Source: Candidatus Micrarchaeota archaeon (GTDB taxonomy: Archaea; Micrarchaeota; Micrarchaeia; Micrarchaeales; CABMGC01). From it: a stretch of 64,000 nucleotides of DNA. Position numbers and translations under genes: made by a program. Below are positions 11,667 through 60,102 of the stretch, one piece after another (position 1 is the first letter of the stretch; each line of letters opens with the position of its first letter). The stretch covers positions 8,517-72,516 of the forward strand of contig JAJZKW010000001.1 of assembly GCA_021803945.1 (NCBI GenBank), written 5' to 3'. The notes under the pieces were generated by a model, which was not told the DNA's origin, did not search any database, and saw only the letters and a list, made by a program, of their open reading frames with translations.

Positions 11667-11795
11667 CGATACAGAGTCTTATTTGAAGGTTAAGTTATAA
11701 ATCCGTATCTGGGCCGCATTGGCATGACGTGCAGCCCAAAGCGAACGGATATATTGGTTAATGCTGCAATTATATATGACCTCAAAGGAGATGCC

Positions 11796-13967
11796 ATGAG
11801 CTTATCGAAATTGTCAGGAATCGGCTTCACAGCTCTGAAGAGCAACTTCACGCACCTGGACAGGCCGTACAAACTGACCTTTTCGATTACCTATGGCTGC
11901 CAGAGTAGATGCGTTACGTGCGTTAAGCCAGACGAGGTTATTCTGGGAGACAATACTCCCATTTCAAACCTGCGGATTGGTAGCCATGCTGTGGGATGTT
12001 CAGGGTTGAATGAAATCTCGCAAACATCTTCAAGATCTTATTCCGGAAGGCTCTTTAGAATAAAGGCATCAGGTCTGTTGCCAATAGAAATTACCCCAGA
12101 ACATCCACTGCTTATAATGAGTTCAAGAACCACAAGGCATTCTGAAAGCTCTGCAGGAAATAGTAAATATTATCGCAACTATAATTTCGGAAAACCCACC
12201 TGGAAAGAAGCGAAGGATGTTGTTAAAAAGGGGACTGATACAGATGGTGATTATCTCTGTACTCCTATCATACAAAGAACCATTAAAACTAAAGAAATAG
12301 ATCTGAAGCCATTTAACAGAGGTAGAGGTGTTGCCATATCAAAAGCAAAGGGATATTCACTCAGTTTCCCATTAGATACTGAAACGGCATGGCTTTTAGG
12401 GATTTATGTTGCAGAAGGCTGCCCAGCGTCTAACGGCGCGCGATTCAACTTTAATGTAACAGAAATAAATCTCCATGCAAGAGTGGAAAAAATTGCAAAT
12501 CAGTTAGGCTATTCCATAACTAAAACAGAGAAAAACAACTGCACAACCTGTTGTCTAAGCTCGCATGTTCTTTCGAGAGCATTTGTAGAATGGTGTGGGA
12601 AAGGTGCGTTGAACAAAAAAATACCCGACTTTATTCTATTTAACAATGACGAATCGATACTTAGAGCGTTTCTAAAAGGTTGGGAGGAGGGAGACGGATA
12701 CTGGCGCGGTGATGATTTAATAGGGTCTACAATATCAAAAACTCTTGCCTTGCAGCTTCAGCTTGCTTATGCTTCGATAGGCATCATGGCAAACGTATCC
12801 TTTGTAAAGAAGGAAGGAATGCATATGTTTTATGATAAGCCAATACACAACCATGACGTATATGTGATTAAATATTCAAAAAATCCAGGCATAAGCTATT
12901 CTAGACGCGTAGGCAATTACTATGTGCGGCCGATAAGAAGCGTAAGTGATATCCAGTATAACGGAACAGTGCACAATATAGAAACCAGCGACAATACCTA
13001 CTTAGTATCAAACGCAGTAGTGCACAATTGCAATATATGGCAGATAAAACCAACCGGCGAGCTTGACCTGCGCGAAATACGCGCGTTTGCAGAGAAGAAC
13101 CCTTACTTTAAATGGATAGAGATAACCGGCGGCGAGCCTTTCCTGAGAAGCGACCTGGTTGACATAGTCAGGGCGTTTGCAGAAAGCTCGAAAGGCCTGT
13201 ATGTGCTTACAATGCCTACAAACTCATTATGCAGGCTTGAGTCTGAATCTGAAAGGATCGAGGAGATATTGAAGCTCGGAATCCCGAAAGTGTCCATAAC
13301 GCTCAGCCTTGACGGATACGGGGAGCTGCACGACAAGATACGCGGCATACCCGGCAACTTCGCCAGGGTGATGGCAATGGCAAAGAAGCTCAAGGAGATG
13401 CAGGCACGCTACAAGAATCTCTTCTTCGTCTTCGGATACACCATGAGCAAGTTCAATGAGGGCAGGTTGATAGAGACGGTAGAGGCTGTGAAAAAGGACT
13501 TTCCATGGGTCTCATACAACAATTTCCACGTGAACGCAGGACAGGTATCTGAAATATACTACCAGAATTCAGAGATGAGCATAAAGCCTGAGGCTACCGT
13601 ATTCTCCAAAGAGCTACGGGAATTCATAAGAAGAAGGAAATTTGAGCTAGGCGCTATACCTATAATAGAGTCAGCGTTCCTCAGGAAGCTTGATTATTAT
13701 GTAAAGACAGGGAGACCTCCGATGAAGGGCCGCAGCCTTGACGCATCCCTCTTCCTAGACAGCTACGGGAATGTCTATCCGTCAATAATGTGGGGCAGGA
13801 AGATAGGCAACATAAGGGAAGTCGATTATGACCTTTCAAGGCTGTGGCTAAACGCAGAGGCCCAGGAGGCCAGGAAGCTGATAAGGGAAGGCAAGGAGCC
13901 AAGGGCGTGGACTGCATGCGAGGCATATCAGACCCTTGTCGGGAATATAGGAAGCCTGTTTATTTAG
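11796..13967 (+). CDS. Radical SAM protein interrupted by an intein
   Basis: N-extein '...ITYGCQSRCVT' plus C-extein 'CNIWQIKPTGE...ITGGEPFLRSD' reconstitutes the CxxxCxxC and GGEP radical-SAM motifs. Start taken at ATG 11796 (MSLSKLSG). Confidence 0.85.
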   Translation: MSLSKLSGIGFTALKSNFTHLDRPYKLTFSITYGCQSRCVTCVKPDEVILGDNTPISNLRIGSHAVGCSGLNEISQTSSRSYSGRLFRIKASGLLPIEITPEHPLLIMSSRTTRHSESSAGNSKYYRNYNFGKPTWKEAKDVVKKGTDTDGDYLCTPIIQRTIKTKEIDLKPFNRGRGVAISKAKGYSLSFPLDTETAWLLGIYVAEGCPASNGARFNFNVTEINLHARVEKIANQLGYSITKTEKNNCTTCCLSSHVLSRAFVEWCGKGALNKKIPDFILFNNDESILRAFLKGWEEGDGYWRGDDLIGSTISKTLALQLQLAYASIGIMANVSFVKKEGMHMFYDKPIHNHDVYVIKYSKNPGISYSRRVGNYYVRPIRSVSDIQYNGTVHNIETSDNTYLVSNAVVHNCNIWQIKPTGELDLREIRAFAEKNPYFKWIEITGGEPFLRSDLVDIVRAFAESSKGLYVLTMPTNSLCRLESESERIEEILKLGIPKVSITLSLDGYGELHDKIRGIPGNFARVMAMAKKLKEMQARYKNLFFVFGYTMSKFNEGRLIETVEAVKKDFPWVSYNNFHVNAGQVSEIYYQNSEMSIKPEATVFSKELREFIRRRKFELGAIPIIESAFLRKLDYYVKTGRPPMKGRSLDASLFLDSYGNVYPSIMWGRKIGNIREVDYDLSRLWLNAEAQEARKLIREGKEPRAWTACEAYQTLVGNIGSLFI
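11919..13028 (+). mobile_element. Class 1 intein with LAGLIDADG homing endonuclease (370 aa)
   Basis: Cys1 'CVKPDEVILGDN' (block A), 'ITPEHPLLI' (block B, TxxH), 'LLGIYVAEGC' and 'FLKGWEEGDGYW' (two LAGLIDADG motifs), terminal 'NAVVHN' followed by Cys+1. More A+T-rich than the flanking exteins. Confidence 0.8.
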
Positions 13968-14032: not shown

Positions 14033-14614
14033 ATGAGAGTGCAGGAAGTCATAAAAGAGCTAAAGCTTAATGGGCTATCTGTCTTCAATGTCAATGATGT
14101 TTCAAGAATCACAGGAAAGGGCAAAAACTATCTCTATCTACTGCTATCAAAAAGCAGACTAGTGGCAAGAGCACAGAATGGCGTATATTATCTGCCCGAT
14201 ACGGATCCTATGGAAGTAGCCTCTTATATTGCAACTCCTTCTTACATAAGCCTCATATCTGCATTTGGATACTATAAACTTATAGACCAGATACCAAACG
14301 TAGTTAAGGTAATCACAACAAAGAGGCACGGAGAGATGGAGAAAGTGCAGGGCACAAGGATAGTATTCAAGACCACAAAGAGAGAAATGCTCTACGGTTA
14401 TCATAGGGAGCACAACATTTCAATAGCCGATATAGAAAAAGCAGTGGTTGATTCCATATACTTTAATGAAGATATTCGCTATATCAAAGAAGTAATCAAA
14501 AACGGCATCAAGGCTGGCATATTTGACCTAGGCAAGCTAGAAGTGTATGCCAAAACCAGCAGGTCCAAGAGTCTTTTAGAGAAAGTGAATGGCGTGTTAA
14601 GGGTAGTTAAGTGA
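14033..14614 (+). CDS. AbiEi-like antitoxin / transcriptional regulator (type IV TA)
   Basis: About 193 aa from ATG 14033 (MRVQEVIKELK...FNVNDVSRITG, wHTH-like). It overlaps the downstream AbiEii gene by 4 nt. The ORF-track N-terminal extension overlaps the radical SAM gene and is rejected. Confidence 0.65.
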   Translation: MRVQEVIKELKLNGLSVFNVNDVSRITGKGKNYLYLLLSKSRLVARAQNGVYYLPDTDPMEVASYIATPSYISLISAFGYYKLIDQIPNVVKVITTKRHGEMEKVQGTRIVFKTTKREMLYGYHREHNISIADIEKAVVDSIYFNEDIRYIKEVIKNGIKAGIFDLGKLEVYAKTSRSKSLLEKVNGVLRVVK

Positions 14615-15375
14615 TTGGCAGAGATGCAATATTGGAATATTCACGCAGGAAGCGTGTCAATCCTTTCTGGATAGAGAATGACTATCTTCAGTACATAGTG
14701 CTTATGGAACTGTACAAAGAATTTTCTAACGAGCTTGTCTTCAAAGGAGGTACAGCCCTGCAAAAAGTGTACGGACTTGAAAGGCTGTCGAGGGACCTCG
14801 ATTTCAACCTGCAAGGCATTGAGCCAGGACCCAAATTAGAAAGGTCTACAAGAGGCATCAACGATTATTACAAGGCTTCTTGCAGAGGGCCAGAGAAATT
14901 GAAGCACGGATTGAGTTTCATGTTTTATATCAACAGCCCTTCGTACGAAGCAACTGGCAGACAGCACCAGATGCCAATCACATTTAATCTTGAGGAAAAA
15001 GTCATGTTAAAACCAATGTTCAAGACCATCAATCCCGGAGCGATCTATCGCGATCCCGATCTTCACACATATTCGCTGTTAGCCATGGACGAGTCTGAGA
15101 TACTGGCAGAGAAGGTAAGGGCAGCGATGACGCGAAAGGATACAGAACCTCGGGATTTCTATGACATCTGGTTCATGCTAAACAAAGGGGTGCCGCTTGA
15201 CATGGCAATGGTAAGCAAAAAACTTAATTTTGCACACAGTGTATTCTCAATCGCCTATTTCAGATCTAGGCTACGTGGCGTGAAAGAAAATTGGAAGCAG
15301 GACCTAGGTCCTTTAATAGACCCGCTGCCTGAATATGGCGAAGTAGCAAAATATATAATTCATCAATTCAAATGA
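14611..15375 (+). CDS. AbiEii/AbiGii family nucleotidyltransferase toxin
   Basis: 'VFKGGTALQKVYG..RLSRDLDF' is the hallmark NTase motif of DUF1814/AbiEii. GTG start overlaps the upstream stop (GTGA). Confidence 0.8.
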   Translation: MIGRDAILEYSRRKRVNPFWIENDYLQYIVLMELYKEFSNELVFKGGTALQKVYGLERLSRDLDFNLQGIEPGPKLERSTRGINDYYKASCRGPEKLKHGLSFMFYINSPSYEATGRQHQMPITFNLEEKVMLKPMFKTINPGAIYRDPDLHTYSLLAMDESEILAEKVRAAMTRKDTEPRDFYDIWFMLNKGVPLDMAMVSKKLNFAHSVFSIAYFRSRLRGVKENWKQDLGPLIDPLPEYGEVAKYIIHQFK

Positions 15376-22625: not shown

Positions 22626-22698
22626 AGCTCCATCGTCTAGTGGTCAAGGATAACGGGCTCTGAACCCGTTGACGCCAGTCCGAATCTGGCTGGAGCTA
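22626..22698 (+). tRNA. tRNA-Gln (anticodon CUG)
   Basis: 73 nt. Acceptor AGCTCCA/TGGAGCT is a perfect 7 bp stem. Anticodon arm is ACGGG-CTCTGAA-CCCGT with U33 and A37. T arm is GCCAG-TCCGAAT-CTGGC. Discriminator is A and there is no encoded CCA. Confidence 0.85.
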
Positions 22699-54681: not shown

Positions 54682-54870
54682 TCCAGCATACATTGCTCTG
54701 CTTATACATGCTCCCTTTTTTGTCTGCCAAATCTACTATAAATCCTTAAATACTCTACATCACCCATAGTTTTGGAATGCAATGCAAAGCCGACAACAAT
54801 TAAATACGCACTCACTCAAATATGTGTATGGCAGTCAAACCTGCTTTTATGTGCGGAATGATGATTGGGC

Positions 54871-57800
54871 ATGTTTAAACTTAATGTGATTACAGCCTTC
54901 TCTATTTTGATACTCGGCCTTGTGCTTATCCCTTCTGCGGTCCAGGCAAACCCTTGCGGAACGTTTCCTTCAGGCATGTCGTACTGCCAGCAGCTCTCTA
55001 TAGCAAACCAGCAATCAAGCGCAGTTGCTGCGGGAACGCAGGTGATGCTAAACTACAACGCCCTCGCGTACAATACCTACCTTGCATCGAATCTGATGAA
55101 CATCGAGGTGTATAATTCAATATCCGGGAACGTTCTGTATACGTGGCTCGAGGGCAACACCCTGAACGAGAACCAGGGTACCCTTCTTTCCACGTCAGCA
55201 AACATACTATACTGGATTAACCTCGACACCCCTATAGCTGCAAGCAGCACGGACTCGAATATTTACCTCGCGTACTTCCCAACCACAAACGACCTGTTCA
55301 ATGGGAACAACCTTGGCGCAGCCCCGCAGCTCTACTGCGCAAGCGGATGCCCTACTATTAGCTACAATGCAATAGACAACGGTCAAAAGGTGTTTCCGCT
55401 GCTATACCAGAACTTCGCAGGAACCTTAGTTCCTACTGGATGGGCCAATACTGGAGGGGTCATAAGTAATGGAGTAACGCTGAGCAGCTCTGTAGGTAAT
55501 TCAATGGTCACATCTGCGTTATACGGTCTTAATTCGACTCAGATAGAGGACATATACGGAAATCTTCAAGGATCTAGCACTGCAACAAACATTTATTTTG
55601 GCTATACAAACAGCAATAATGCAGACTGTCTTGGCTGGGGCGTAGGCGGGAACGGAGTTACTGGTGCACCAGCTTCAAATTCCATCATATATAATTTTTA
55701 TGGTAATACGTGTTCACATAGCTCTGCAATTTTTGGAAACCTAAATCCTTCAGAAACAACAAATGCCGTATTCACTACTTATTGGCCCTCGTCAACATCC
55801 ATAATATCAAGTTTTGACTACGGCCCTACCAACGAGATAAGCAGCGCTTATACGGCACAATTGCCAATCGGATCATATGTGGATGGAGGCACTGGCGCTT
55901 TCATGCAGTGGGTCCGCCTTCGAACGTACCCTCCAAACGGAGTTCAGCCTACTGTAACGTTTGGGTCTGTGCAATCCATAAATGCGCCATCATGTACAGT
56001 ATCGATAACCAACCCCTCAAATGCAATAGTAGATGCAGGCCAGTACGAGACATTCATAGCCTCGAATACCAACTGCGTAAGCCCGTATACCTACAATATA
56101 CTCGTGGTTAACTCGATTACGCCTGCAACCATAACACACAACGACCTTGTCACAGGAAGCACTTCATCTTCTATAACATACACCTTCCAGGCTGCAAGCT
56201 ACGATGTCTCCAACAGTCCTGAGGAGGCAAACGTAGTGCTGACGGACTCAGGGACAAATACAGTGACTTCGGGATATTCATCAACATTTACCATAAACCC
56301 CGCACTGGTGGCCAGCGCATCTCCGACTCCAACCTCCCCAACAATATATCAGGGCCAATCTGTCGCGCTGTCGATATCCGCTCCCACTGCAGGAACATCT
56401 CCATATTCATACCAGTGGTATTCAGGCTCATCTTCGACTTGCACATCGGATTCTCCCATTCCAAACGCAGCATCGCTGTCATACACGGCCTCGCCTTCAG
56501 CAAATACATATTATTGCGTAAAGGAAACGGACAATGTAAATGAAGTAGTCTATACCGGCACAGATTTGGTAACGGTCCTCCCAGCCACGAACTTCTCAGA
56601 GACGGGACTGCCTGACGGCGCAGTCTGGACTGTCACATACAACAGCGTAAGCACTAATACAGTAGCATCCAACTCTATATACTTCCACTCCTCCCTAAAC
56701 ACCGGGTCTACCTATTCGTTCATTATAAACAATAGCATAATAAGCGGGGTGCCATACCTGCCCACGCCTTCGGGAGGAAACCTACAGGCAGGCAACGCGA
56801 TCAACATAAAATTTGCACCGCAGAATGTAATAACCCCAAGTCCCACAGAGCGTGTGATAATCCCATTATACATATATCCAAATGCCACTTACTCCCTCCT
56901 TCCGAGCTACATGCCCGGCCTTTACGGCGTTGTGATAAACCCAGACAGCGGTTCAGGCGCAAGCATAAATACGGACTATGCATCTGCAGCCGCGAAGCTG
57001 GAATCCAAAGGAGTGAAGGTCTTCGGGTACGTGCCAACAGGCTACGGAGCAGATCCGCTGTCATATGTCGAAGCCAACATAGTGAACTATTACAGCTGGT
57101 ATCATGTAAACGGGATATTCTTCGATGAGGCGAATTCCATATGCACTACATCAACAGAAAACTACTACAGCTCGCTATACGGGTACATAAAAGGCAATTA
57201 CCTGAGCAATACAGTCATACTAAATCCAGGGGCGCCGAGCGGACCATGCTACCAGTTCTATTCAGATATAATAAACGCATTTGAAAATCCGTATTCAGAT
57301 TACATAAACAGCGTCTATTCTCCTGATTCGTGGGCTTCCAATACCCTGCCATCTCACTTTATGAATATAATCTATGGCGTCCCGAACAATACCGTAGTGC
57401 AGCAGACAATCAACCTTGCCGACAACAGGAGCATTGGCTACGTGTACATCACCAATACTATGGGTGTTTATTCCATATTGCCACCATATTTTGCCCAGGA
57501 AGCAAACATGGTAAATCCGCTGGTAATAAAAAATCCTGTTGCAAGCACAGAGACTGCTGCCAACAGCCAGGCAATATCCTTCAATGTGATTGCAACCGGA
57601 GGGTCTGGCGCATACACATACAACTGGTTCGGCTTACCTCCAGGGTGCACTTCTCCAAACGCGAATTCCCTTAGCTGCACTCCCTCATCTCCAGGCACCC
57701 ATACAATATCAACCCAAGTCACTGACTCATATGGGTTTACCAACTCGTCGTCTCAGATAGTTTTTGATTCAGGAATAATATACAAGGTTCCGATAACGTT

Positions 57801-60102
57801 TACAAACTCCCAGACAAGCAATACGCCAAACCCATGGCAGCAGCCAGTAACAGTCAACAGCCTTGATTACCAAAATGTTGAGAATTCAAATATAATCAAT
57901 ACCGTATTTTTCTATCAAAACGGCACAATCATAAATTCATGGCTTGAAGGAAACGTGCTCAACGAGCAGCAGACAACAGGTCTTGCGACCTCAGAGAATA
58001 GCTTATATTACCTCAAACTGCCGAGTATCCCTGCTTCAAGCAGTCTAACCGTATATATGGGATTTGCTGGGAATACCATAAACCTGATGAATCCTGTTTC
58101 TACCGGAGAAGCTCCGCAGCTGACCACGCAATACGCACAATACGACAACGGGGGGCATGTATTCAGCTATTACCAAAACTTTTCCGGAACTGTTCTATCA
58201 TCTCTTTGGCAAAACCCAAATTCCTATACCGCAATACAGAACAACGGGCTTACTCTGACTGCTCCGTCAGGAGGGGGCCTATTCTATTATAACGTGAACA
58301 TGCCCAGTTCATATGCCGTTGATGCTTACATGAAAGGGAATTCTCTCCTGAGCTCTACAGTTACAGACCTCATGAGTATGGGAGCCGGAGGCAGCCTGAA
58401 CAATTACACAGAGCTATACCTCTCCAACTCATTGCCTTCAACCTGGATACTACAATCCGGCGGAAATTCGGGAGGTGGTACAGTTGTAGGGACCGAAAAT
58501 AACTATTATGTTATGACATTGAGCGGCACTCCGTCTAGCGTATCGTCCTTTGTAAATTACACCCCAATCAGTAGCCTCACAGGAGCCAGCAACTCTATCA
58601 ATCCAAATATCGGCGTATACACAAGCGGCGCAGGCGGAAACTCTTACTTTCTTGATTGGATGCGCGTCAGGTCTTATCCTCCAGGAGGAGTAACGCCATC
58701 TGCGACTTTCGGATCCCTGTCATCCACTACAATCCCTTCCATATCATCTACGCCTTCCCTGCCGAAGACCCTCGATACAGGCCAGACCATAGCATTCAAC
58801 GCGCTTGCAACAGAAGGCAGCGGGTCGTATACGGCTTACAACTTCCTTATATTCAACTCAGCAACCGGAATACAAGTAGGTAACTATCTCACAACGTCCA
58901 ATTCCTTCGCATATTCTATACCTTCATCAGAAGTGGGAAACACCCTGGCAGTAAACGTATTGGTTACTGATTCGAATGGGGAATCTGCCAATTCTATATT
59001 TACAGGAATGCTAACAGTAAACACCCAGCCTACGATATCGATCACTCCGTCGAAGACCTCGATAGACGCAGGACAGACAATAACGATAGCGAATACTGTC
59101 ACTGGAGGCACTGCGCCGTTCACCTACTCATACACAGTCAACTCGATGACAGGGGTCACGATAGGCAGCAACCAGATAACATTCGCGGATGCGGGCACAT
59201 TCAACGTCCTTGAATCAGTGACAGACACTGCAGGAGTCACAGCGTATTCGGCCAACAGCGTCATAACAGTCGCAGCGGCTCCACCTGCTCCCTCACCTCC
59301 AAGCAGCGGCAATGGAGGTTATAACAATAACATAGCCACTGTTACCATATCCAATAAGTTAAATGTTGCAATAGTGTCAAACCATAATAACATCGTGCAT
59401 AATCTTGCCTTCAATGTGACTATCATGATAAGAAGCGTGTTTTCAAACTCGGTAAGCATGTCATTTAAAAATATGACAGGAAACAAGACCATTCCAGGAT
59501 GCAGTTCCAATCTATATTCAATCAACGTCTCTATAATTCCCACTTCAACCGAGCCCATTACCACAGACCTGACCATACCTTATACATACACTTTCAACAA
59601 GGACGGTTTGGTGCCATTCATATGCACAGACAGAGAATGGGTGCCATATACAAATTACAGTATAAACCTGCAAAACCATACAATGACACTTAAAAATATT
59701 CCTTCAGATCCTATAATCGGATTGCTTTATCCAAATTATACTTCCAACGCTACGACTACCACTGTAACTACAATTCCTCAGGTAAACACAACAGTACCGA
59801 CAACATCGATACCTGTAGCACCAAAGACCACATCAATCATATACTCTACAGTAGTAACCACTATTCTTCCAGTTGTCCAGAGCCCTGTATCTGAAAATTC
59901 TAGCCTGTTTACGGCCATTGCAATACTACTGGTAATTATTGCTGTATCAATTTATCTCATTTTCAATAAAATGCGAGAGTCAAAAAGAAGAGATGAGGCA
60001 AAACGAGAAATAAAAAAGAAAGCTGAGGCAAAGACCTCGAAGGTAGACAAAAATCAGAGAAAGCTAATAAGCCACAAGGATAATCAAAAAGCAAAATCTT
60101 GA
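54871..60102 (+). CDS. Giant (about 1740 aa) cell-surface protein with DUF2341/LamG, Ig-like and Spherulin-4-like modules and a TM anchor
   Basis: Signal peptide 'FKLNVITAFSILILGLVLIPSAVQA'. Two DUF2341-like modules ('...NIEVYNSISGNVLYTWLEGN...IYLAYFP', '...VFFYQNGTIINSWLEGN...VYMGFAGN') each end in 'W(V/M)R(L/V)R(T/S)YPP.GV.P..TFGS'. Several roughly 100-aa Ig-like repeats carry 'GG(S/T).(A/P)(Y/F)TY'. The C-terminus has a Thr-rich linker, TM 'FTAIAILLVIIAVSIYLIF' and a Lys-rich tail. Confidence 0.85.
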   Translation: MFKLNVITAFSILILGLVLIPSAVQANPCGTFPSGMSYCQQLSIANQQSSAVAAGTQVMLNYNALAYNTYLASNLMNIEVYNSISGNVLYTWLEGNTLNENQGTLLSTSANILYWINLDTPIAASSTDSNIYLAYFPTTNDLFNGNNLGAAPQLYCASGCPTISYNAIDNGQKVFPLLYQNFAGTLVPTGWANTGGVISNGVTLSSSVGNSMVTSALYGLNSTQIEDIYGNLQGSSTATNIYFGYTNSNNADCLGWGVGGNGVTGAPASNSIIYNFYGNTCSHSSAIFGNLNPSETTNAVFTTYWPSSTSIISSFDYGPTNEISSAYTAQLPIGSYVDGGTGAFMQWVRLRTYPPNGVQPTVTFGSVQSINAPSCTVSITNPSNAIVDAGQYETFIASNTNCVSPYTYNILVVNSITPATITHNDLVTGSTSSSITYTFQAASYDVSNSPEEANVVLTDSGTNTVTSGYSSTFTINPALVASASPTPTSPTIYQGQSVALSISAPTAGTSPYSYQWYSGSSSTCTSDSPIPNAASLSYTASPSANTYYCVKETDNVNEVVYTGTDLVTVLPATNFSETGLPDGAVWTVTYNSVSTNTVASNSIYFHSSLNTGSTYSFIINNSIISGVPYLPTPSGGNLQAGNAINIKFAPQNVITPSPTERVIIPLYIYPNATYSLLPSYMPGLYGVVINPDSGSGASINTDYASAAAKLESKGVKVFGYVPTGYGADPLSYVEANIVNYYSWYHVNGIFFDEANSICTTSTENYYSSLYGYIKGNYLSNTVILNPGAPSGPCYQFYSDIINAFENPYSDYINSVYSPDSWASNTLPSHFMNIIYGVPNNTVVQQTINLADNRSIGYVYITNTMGVYSILPPYFAQEANMVNPLVIKNPVASTETAANSQAISFNVIATGGSGAYTYNWFGLPPGCTSPNANSLSCTPSSPGTHTISTQVTDSYGFTNSSSQIVFDSGIIYKVPITFTNSQTSNTPNPWQQPVTVNSLDYQNVENSNIINTVFFYQNGTIINSWLEGNVLNEQQTTGLATSENSLYYLKLPSIPASSSLTVYMGFAGNTINLMNPVSTGEAPQLTTQYAQYDNGGHVFSYYQNFSGTVLSSLWQNPNSYTAIQNNGLTLTAPSGGGLFYYNVNMPSSYAVDAYMKGNSLLSSTVTDLMSMGAGGSLNNYTELYLSNSLPSTWILQSGGNSGGGTVVGTENNYYVMTLSGTPSSVSSFVNYTPISSLTGASNSINPNIGVYTSGAGGNSYFLDWMRVRSYPPGGVTPSATFGSLSSTTIPSISSTPSLPKTLDTGQTIAFNALATEGSGSYTAYNFLIFNSATGIQVGNYLTTSNSFAYSIPSSEVGNTLAVNVLVTDSNGESANSIFTGMLTVNTQPTISITPSKTSIDAGQTITIANTVTGGTAPFTYSYTVNSMTGVTIGSNQITFADAGTFNVLESVTDTAGVTAYSANSVITVAAAPPAPSPPSSGNGGYNNNIATVTISNKLNVAIVSNHNNIVHNLAFNVTIMIRSVFSNSVSMSFKNMTGNKTIPGCSSNLYSINVSIIPTSTEPITTDLTIPYTYTFNKDGLVPFICTDREWVPYTNYSINLQNHTMTLKNIPSDPIIGLLYPNYTSNATTTTVTTIPQVNTTVPTTSIPVAPKTTSIIYSTVVTTILPVVQSPVSENSSLFTAIAILLVIIAVSIYLIFNKMRESKRRDEAKREIKKKAEAKTSKVDKNQRKLISHKDNQKAKS
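55090..55391 (+). repeat. 302-nt tract 100% identical to 62079-62380 (copy 1)
   Basis: Read directly. From AATCTGATGAACATCGAGG... to ...GACAACGGTCAAAAGGT the two paralogs are identical base for base, while the flanking coding sequence is only about three-quarters identical. Confidence 0.9.
56854..57505 (+). other. Spherulin-4-like (glycoside-hydrolase-like TIM barrel) domain inside the giant surface protein
   Basis: 'VIIPLYIYPNATY...GVVINPDSGSG...GVKVFGYVPTGYG...YYSWYHVNGIFFDEA...ILNPGAP...NAFEN...GYVYITN' resembles the spherulation-specific family 4 pattern (IxPLYxYP...NPxNGPG...GYVxTxY...GIFxDE). Confidence 0.55.

Follow-up and report, generated by a model that had tools for sequence, protein, structure and literature searches.

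A LAGLIDADG intein in the predicted iron-sulfur cluster loop of a Micrarchaeota radical SAM enzyme

The DNA analyzed here, referred to as the window, is a stretch of 64,000 nucleotides from a Candidatus Micrarchaeota archaeon (contig JAJZKW010000001.1, assembly GCA_021803945.1), and the element in question is an insertion that splits the coding sequence of a radical SAM enzyme. A single long open reading frame (ORF) occupies window positions 11724..13967 on the plus strand. Its translation reads ...ITYGCQSRCVT/CVKPDEVILGDN...NAVVHN/CNIWQIKPTGE, where slashes mark the splice junctions, and excision of the intervening residues in silico yields CQSRCVTC. An earlier reading of the window that used only the letters and their translations (the sequence-only reading) had placed a 370-aa intein at 11919-13028, and these coordinates are confirmed to the base. 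The insertion is very probably a class-1 intein with a LAGLIDADG endonuclease, lodged in a [4Fe-4S]-binding loop at C-x3-C-x2/C, which is spliced out of its host and spreads as a homing element. The gene and its parts are laid out as follows, with limits of the splicing domain taken from the secondary structure of an AlphaFold2 (AF2) model.

11796..13967, plus strand: precursor gene of the intein-interrupted radical SAM enzyme, 723 aa counted from Met25
11796..11918, plus strand: N-extein, 41 aa, ending ...TYGCQSRCVT, with the first two cluster cysteines at -7 and -3
11919..13028, plus strand: intein, 370 aa, class 1 (Cys1 ... His369-Asn370), a clean DNA insertion of 1110 bp
11919..12293, plus strand: Hint splicing domain, N-terminal lobe, residues 1-125 (limits approximate)
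11919-11921, plus strand: block A, Cys1, in the N-terminal lobe
12093-12104, plus strand: block B, TPEH, residues 59-62 (ITPEH 58-62), in the N-terminal lobe
12294..12806, plus strand: LAGLIDADG homing endonuclease domain, residues ~126-296
12393-12419, plus strand: LAGLIDADG motif 1, LLGIYVAEG, residues 159-167, acidic catalytic E166 kept
12672-12698, plus strand: LAGLIDADG motif 2, LKGWEEGDG, residues 252-260, acidic catalytic D259 kept
12807..13028, plus strand: Hint splicing domain, C-terminal lobe, residues 297-370
12969-13007, plus strand: block F, in the C-terminal lobe
13011-13028, plus strand: block G, NAVVHN, in the C-terminal lobe
13029..13031, plus strand: Cys+1, trans-thioesterification nucleophile and predicted third [4Fe-4S] ligand once spliced
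13029..13967, plus strand: C-extein, 312 aa plus stop codon, the remaining radical SAM core with the TGGEPFL SAM-binding motif

The true start of the gene is probably Met25 of the ORF (nt 11796), by homology to orthologs of 353 aa and to the syntenic contig L001 described below. Counted from this residue the mature enzyme has 353 aa, as against 377 aa from the ATG at 11724. The deposited protein P0241 (747 aa, NCBI/ENA) and the mechanical ORF both begin at that ATG, 24 codons upstream of the ortholog start, and the start codon of P0241 is probably mis-called. An identical protein sequence is found on six contigs in two archives. No second copy of the intein was found in the window by tblastn or by a motif scan.

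The in-silico spliced extein was used as the query in a search for orthologs, and 800 homologs had E <= 1e-10. Among the 120 best, lengths are 343-373 aa and identities 59-93% over ~100% of the query; almost all are encoded in metagenome-assembled genomes (MAGs) of Micrarchaeota. Every one of the 120 lacks the intein and runs colinearly over the junction, reading CQSRC[VLI]TCNIW. The best ortholog, P0001 (93% identical), is encoded by an uninterrupted gene on contig L001 (GCA_054610635.1), which is syntenic with window positions 1717-22698. In a blastn alignment of the two, the window skips from 11920 to 13029 where L001 is continuous (10125/10124), so that the insert measures exactly 1110 bp relative to L001, with ends ambiguous by two bases, TG. 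The empty site in L001, AGTAGATGCGTTACG/TGTAATATATGGCAGATAAA, differs from the window flanks at one of 35 positions; the L001 empty-site sequence is AGTAGATGCGTTACGTGTAATATATGGCAGATAAA. Colinearity of intein-free orthologs across the junction, which the sequence-only reading had named as a check, is thus borne out by the 120 best homologs and by the syntenic contig.

All of the motifs that had been named from the letters (Cys1, ITPEH, two LAGLIDADG motifs, the terminal HN and Cys+1) are present in the insert and mark it as a class-1 LAGLIDADG intein. When 44 relatives are compared, C1, T59, H62 and H369 are nearly invariant and N370 is invariant, E166, G167 and D259 are conserved, and NAVVHN is retained by nearly all members of the wider intein clade. 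The Pfam model LAGLIDADG_3 scores 24.1 bits on the excised intein (cut-off 22.5), and the only solved structure matched by sequence is PI-PkoII (E 3e-6). The AF2 model of the intein, built on the 44 relatives, has a pLDDT (predicted local distance difference test) of 95.3 and a pTM (predicted template modelling score) of 0.93. The sequence-only reading had set a Hint fold in ORF residues 66-435 beforehand as a test of its call, and in Foldseek searches with the model full-length inteins rank first (E 5e-18 to 1e-9, probability 1.00). The matches are PI-SceI (E 5e-18), TliVMA (template modelling (TM) score 0.68-0.69), PhoVMA, PI-PkoII and PI-PfuI, followed by the free LAGLIDADG enzymes I-DmoI and I-Tsp061I. 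With Cys1 and TxxH, His-Asn/Cys+1, a predicted Hint fold and colinear intein-free homologs, the insert is, on this modelling, a class-1 Hint intein. Likewise, its central domain is predicted to be a monomeric LAGLIDADG endonuclease with two motifs, its modelled fold being alpha-beta-beta-alpha-beta-beta-alpha.

The spliced product scores 56.3 bits on Pfam Radical_SAM (PF04055; cut-off 29.5), with the N-terminal alignment running from profile position 2, and its CqsrCvtC aligns with the cluster motif CnlsCsfC of SkfB. Ortholog P0001 was modelled with AlphaFold (pLDDT 88.9); in the model the loop that follows strand beta1 contains all three cysteines, and the fold matches those of SkfB, BlsE, anSME, SuiB, MoaA, viperin and GDGT-MAS. 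Because the motif aligns to that of SkfB and the model puts the cysteines in this loop, the third cluster ligand can be equated with the +1 residue. The only invariant cysteines in 55 intein-free orthologs are C35, C39, C42 and C338, the last being the one invariant cysteine of the C-terminal domain of the C-extein. The claims that the site lies within CxxxCxx/C, and that the +1 nucleophile is also the third cluster ligand, hence agree with the SkfB alignment and with the invariance of Cys42. Once spliced, the host appears to be a bona fide radical SAM protein of an uncharacterised family conserved across Micrarchaeota.

Several named families were considered for the host and rejected. A SPASM/twitch assignment fails on the single extra invariant cysteine (C338) in the 55 orthologs and on the score for PF13186 (13.8 bits, cut-off 21.5; E 0.075). 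The Tes model NF045703 scores 56.9 on the precursor where 1700 is required. MoaA is itself a radical SAM enzyme, yet its model TIGR02666 gives the spliced extein 41.6 bits against a cut-off of 284. AhbD, NirJ and PqqE identities are all far under their cut-offs, and the spliced extein scores 51.4 against 500 on TIGR04545 and 61.9 against 395 on TIGR04053.

When a single genome for each GTDB species was scanned for further alleles, seven additional Micrarchaeota species proved to have this intein in the same enzyme and at an identical position. Identity of these inteins to that of the window is 80% (L004), 68% (L005), 64% (L012), 63% (L006 and L016), 59% (L007) and 54% (L008). Protein databases hold ~10 further clusters with the same-site allele besides P0241, and the deposited intein-bearing proteins, where named, are annotated just as 'radical SAM protein'. 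The eight alleles (the window and the seven others) are intact ORFs with an architecture of 41 + 367-374 + 311-317 aa, and all keep C1, TP[ED]H, AEG, GDG, HN and C+1. The residues before the junction read C(-3)-V-T/C1 in all of them except L016 (C-V-H/), and the full-length protein clusters follow the same pattern. Across the eight alleles the proportion of nonsynonymous differences (pN) is 0.08-0.21 and that of synonymous differences (pS) 0.57-0.90, in splicing and endonuclease domains alike; between the window and L004 the pN/pS ratio of the endonuclease domain is ~0.11. By these comparisons purifying selection acts on both domains, and the alleles are of long standing.

Identities of inteins and exteins are loosely correlated among the alleles (r = 0.64). 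The closest intein is that of L004 (80%), though the L004 extein is only 73% identical and the 93%-identical sister allele in L001 is empty. Such patchy presence, like the conserved empty site in L001 and the purifying selection on the endonuclease domain, is consistent with repeated gain and loss through homing. No tract of co-conversion came to light: near the junction, the identity of the window to L004 is no higher than that of L001 to L004, and this test is uninformative. A search for a viral reservoir in IMG/VR gave only relatives of <=40% identity, which lie in other host genes. A 53%-identical intein is carried by P0251, a different radical SAM/SPASM protein (L082 6001-8379, GCA_054609815.1), at the same motif position, CNSRCSY/C...HN/CSIWKNK. 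The contig that encodes it has 32.5% G+C, many small same-strand ORFs, PCNA and a TnpB-like gene; it was binned as 'Gammaproteobacteria' and, from its gene content, looks like an archaeal virus or plasmid.

The sequence-only reading had remarked that the intein is richer in A+T than its exteins and had taken this as a sign of recent invasion. The difference in composition is real, with a G+C content of 0.40 in the intein and 0.47-0.49 in the exteins, and a G+C content at third codon positions (GC3) of 0.36 and 0.62, respectively. However, intein GC3 is 0.30-0.40 and extein GC3 0.58-0.77 throughout the eight alleles, and the corresponding values in another relative, L003, are 0.32 and 0.82. The inteins of the eight alleles differ by 20-46% in protein sequence and their synonymous sites are largely saturated. 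Because all of these long-diverged alleles have low intein GC3, low G+C is a stable trait of the family and does not point to a recent invasion. A low-G+C replicon of the P0251 type is a possible source of the composition.

By intein chemistry, the 723-aa precursor would be translated and Cys1 would undergo an N-S acyl shift, after which Cys+1 would attack the thioester, Asn370 would cyclise with the assistance of His369, and an S-N shift would form the peptide bond. The products would be a 353-aa enzyme with the CQSRCVTC loop and a free 42-kDa endonuclease. From what is known of radical SAM enzymes, folding of beta1-loop-alpha1 and ligation of the SAM-binding cluster would take place in the spliced form only, and because only that form should ligate the cluster, splicing would be obligatory for activity. 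The precursor, in which a 42-kDa domain keeps ligands 2 and 3 apart, would be inactive. It still reads C(-7)-x3-C(-3)-x2-C(1), with Cys1 of the intein as third cysteine, and we only infer that it is unable to bind the cluster. Alleles without the intein, such as that of the sister genome, would be cleaved by the endonuclease, and repair would copy the element in. Selfish persistence by homing would lead to the patchy, long-standing presence at a single site in Micrarchaeota.

The locus would then offer a natural example of a +1 splicing nucleophile that doubles as a [4Fe-4S] ligand, with empty and occupied alleles in near-identical genomes. It is suited to the study of the interplay between splicing and Fe-S insertion and of a new LAGLIDADG specificity. 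It also calls for a correction of annotation, as the deposited proteins carry no intein flag and their start is probably wrong.

Three observations weigh against this account of a spliced, homing intein. The profile searches suggested in the sequence-only reading were only half successful, for LAGLIDADG_3 passes its cut-off whereas the models of the splicing domain itself, Intein_splicing (19.7 bits against 35.8) and TIGR01445 (13.5 against 24.5), remain sub-threshold. For that reason the insert is assigned to the Hint inteins by its motifs and its predicted fold. The data are as compatible with precise loss in the sister lineage as with gain by homing in the window lineage. Finally, the related protein P0121 (L003 322-2486, 64% intein identity) is frameshifted in its C-extein after ...IRGIPG, beyond which the remainder of the enzyme is encoded in a different frame; the copy is decaying or the assembly is in error.

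Relatives of the intein at 36-45% identity occur in many unrelated host proteins of Nitrososphaerales, Micrarchaeota, Bathyarchaeia, Woesearchaeota and Hadarchaeales. This clade was sampled through the related proteins P0121-P0297 and the loci L004-L079, which give 43 distinct junction contexts that are not all phylogenetically independent. Cysteine is found at -3 in 20 of the 43 contexts, at -1 in two, at -4 in two and at +4 in none; in other words, the site precedes the second cysteine of a C-x-x-C motif in 20 cases and the first in no case. These C-x-x/C sites include thioredoxin WC[GK]P/C and the zinc-ribbon-like ECPH/CG[RK][RW]F, as well as RC[YF][IV]/CGKEACPGC, LCPR/C, KCPI/C and FCPN/C. 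Further hosts of the clade are SufB, PriL, PolB, ribonucleotide reductase (RNR) and thiamine pyrophosphate (TPP) enzymes. A shared DNA target was considered as the cause of the bias and rejected, as the flanking DNA of the sites has the TGY codon alone in common. Because random insertion at conserved cysteines would be expected to give the two positions at equal frequency, the ratio of 20 to 0 suggests, from these junctions, a preference of the clade for Cys-3 at the level of protein. A C-x-x/C preference is not described in the literature searched, an incomplete library.

Two of the host families deserve separate description. Inteins in the active site of thioredoxin are found in P0127, P0130, P0142, P0148, P0149, P0152 and P0156 and at L009 2501-3595 and L013 2501-3574. 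In these precursors a CGPC- or CKPC-like motif is built with Cys1 of the intein, making them a natural analogue of an engineered redox trap. In NuoB (complex I subunit B) the intein lies between tandem cysteines, ...ETAC/CSVE, which we take to be the N2-cluster cysteines. It is present in P0160 and ~70 others, at L022 and other Nitrososphaerales loci, and some NuoB proteins of ~960 aa seem to have a pair of inteins (P0269, P0270 and others). No mention of a NuoB intein was found in the literature searched.

The junction data bear on the alternative that comes closest to the preferred one, which adds conditional splicing to the selfish element: the intein would gate an oxygen-labile enzyme in response to redox state or metal. 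In its redox form, a disulfide between Cys-3 and Cys1 (or Cys1 and Cys+1) would block the first acyl shift under oxidation and be released by reduction; in its metal form, Zn or Fe held by Cys-7, Cys-3 and Cys1 would block the same step. In either case the enzyme would mature only once its cluster can survive. The layout of Cys-3 and Cys1 in the window is the one reported to gate the MoaA intein of Pyrococcus abyssi, in which, according to the accounts in PMC3922620 and PMC10663303, a native disulfide that joins Cys-3 of the N-extein to Cys1 prevents splicing as long as conditions are not reducing. The asymmetry between Cys-3 and Cys+4, seen without any common flanking DNA beyond TGY, would likewise imply a role of Cys-3 at the protein level, and the thioredoxin precursors (WCGP/C) mimic the CGPC redox motif. 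Against this, an intein that needs an indispensable Cys+1 is partly expected to settle in conserved, cysteine-rich sites, about half of the host contexts have no Cys-3, which therefore is not required, and the redox swings that would work such a switch are not demonstrated for Micrarchaeota of this type. Altogether, we regard gating of the window enzyme, which the sequence-only reading had suggested as redox or thiol sensitivity, as plausible by analogy but rather unlikely.

The same tentative standing applies to the broader form of the idea, in which the clade as a whole may have repeatedly colonised C-x-x/C metal and redox motifs and adapted to a thiol triad of Cys-3 and Cys1 (plus Cys+1), with splicing gated by disulfide, metal or Fe-S cluster. 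Each C-x-x/C precursor does rebuild its motif with the intein's catalytic Cys1, but we would sooner doubt than accept that gating follows from it. If true, metabolic enzymes would harbour a widespread natural family of inteins whose splicing depends on redox state or metals. The C-x-x/C preference, if upheld, would extend the single published redox-trap example, the P. abyssi MoaA intein, to many enzymes, including thioredoxin and NuoB of abundant soil archaea, the geometry of NuoB (...TAC/C) being different. This clade-wide preference is the part most worth following.

Returning to the intein as a spliced and homing element, a further alternative holds that it is a degenerate insertion that no longer splices, in which case the interrupted gene would be dead or neofunctionalised. 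The frameshift in one related allele and the weak scores on generic intein models would be in keeping with such decay. The catalytic residues for splicing and for endonuclease activity are nevertheless kept in eight of eight alleles, the ORFs are intact in all eight genomes, intein and exteins both show purifying selection, and the exteins retain the residues that do not vary among intein-free orthologs, so we consider degeneration very improbable. An artefact of sequencing or a chimeric assembly that joined an unrelated endonuclease gene to a radical SAM gene might be suspected in metagenome-derived sequence, but is next to inconceivable given the identical protein on six contigs in two archives, the same in-frame architecture in seven independent Micrarchaeota MAGs at 54-80% intein identity, and boundaries that fall exactly at Cys1 and HN/Cys+1.

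Gene neighbours offer some indication of what the host enzyme does. The next gene 3' of the radical SAM gene in L004, L006, L012 and L016 encodes a NodU/CmcH-type carbamoyltransferase, the window has a carbamoyltransferase gene followed by a gene for a GT4 glycosyltransferase, and in L082 the gene for P0251 is flanked by glycosyltransferases. This setting hints at a role in glycan or other sugar modification. Between the radical SAM and carbamoyltransferase genes, positions 14033-15375 of the window hold a two-gene module of low G+C (0.36-0.44), also present in L001, which encodes a 193-aa protein that matches no Pfam family, together with an AbiEii toxin (type IV toxin-antitoxin system). Because the carbamoyltransferase gene directly adjoins the radical SAM gene in the four other loci, the module looks like a later insertion that separated two genes otherwise kept together as a conserved pair.

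Elsewhere in the window, synteny with L001 ends exactly at the 3' end of the only tRNA gene, tRNA-Gln (CTG) at 22626-22698, and L001 runs 567 bp beyond this end. Downstream of the tRNA gene, to ~25400, the window encodes a GNAT acetyltransferase, an archaeal ATPase with an MCM_C winged helix and a DUF4382 protein. The 3' end of tRNA-Gln may be a tRNA-linked integration point. A 1745-aa ORF at 54865-60102, unrelated to the intein, contains a Spherulin4 domain (E 2e-37) and weakly resembles an Ig-like domain, and its product is probably a large secreted or surface protein.

In architecture the window intein is comparable to PI-SceI (VMA1), TliVMA, PhoVMA, PI-PkoII and PI-PfuI, in all of which a Hint domain is split by a two-motif LAGLIDADG endonuclease. 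In sequence it is only 11-16% identical to them, at TM scores of up to 0.69. The hosts of these inteins are V-ATPase, DNA polymerase and ribonucleotide reductase, and their sites are not at metal-ligand cysteines.

Mycobacterial SufB and other 'environmental sensor' inteins reportedly splice in response to oxidative stress, metals and similar stressors. As in the window, the hosts of SufB-type inteins are related to Fe-S clusters, and the present clade also occurs in SufB (P0255, P0266). The mycobacterial SufB intein differs from that of the window in host, site and organism, and a regulatory role is experimentally established for the SufB type.

The literature search found no description of the window intein or of its clade, the hits on a Campylobacter phage and on T. 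kodakarensis having no bearing on it. The sequence-only reading had regarded an intein in a radical SAM enzyme as out of the ordinary, but such inteins are already on record and that of the window is a new example. NCBIfam has two curated models of intein-carrying radical SAM proteins that resemble the window precursor in this respect: NF045703, 'tetraether lipid synthase Tes, intein-containing', and NF038136, 'intein-containing Rv2578c family radical SAM protein'. A 136-aa fragment over the C-terminal junction (the last 40 intein and 96 extein residues) is colinear with NF045703 positions 568-708, and the model coordinates indicate that the Tes intein has a corresponding position before the GGE motif. 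The match of NF038136 over the N-terminal junction is weak (E 0.08). With scores of 56.9 against 1700 and 11.8 against 700, respectively, the window protein belongs to neither family.

The MoaA intein of P. abyssi (Callahan et al. 2011, as reported in PMC3922620 and PMC10663303) is, according to these accounts, likewise of class 1, with a [4Fe-4S]-dependent, oxygen-labile host and the same Cys-3/Cys1 pair. The layout of Cys-3, Cys1 and Cys+1 is alike in the two, and the site in MoaA may be either CxxxCxx/C or its second, C-terminal CxxC. The two inteins differ in the radical SAM family of their hosts.

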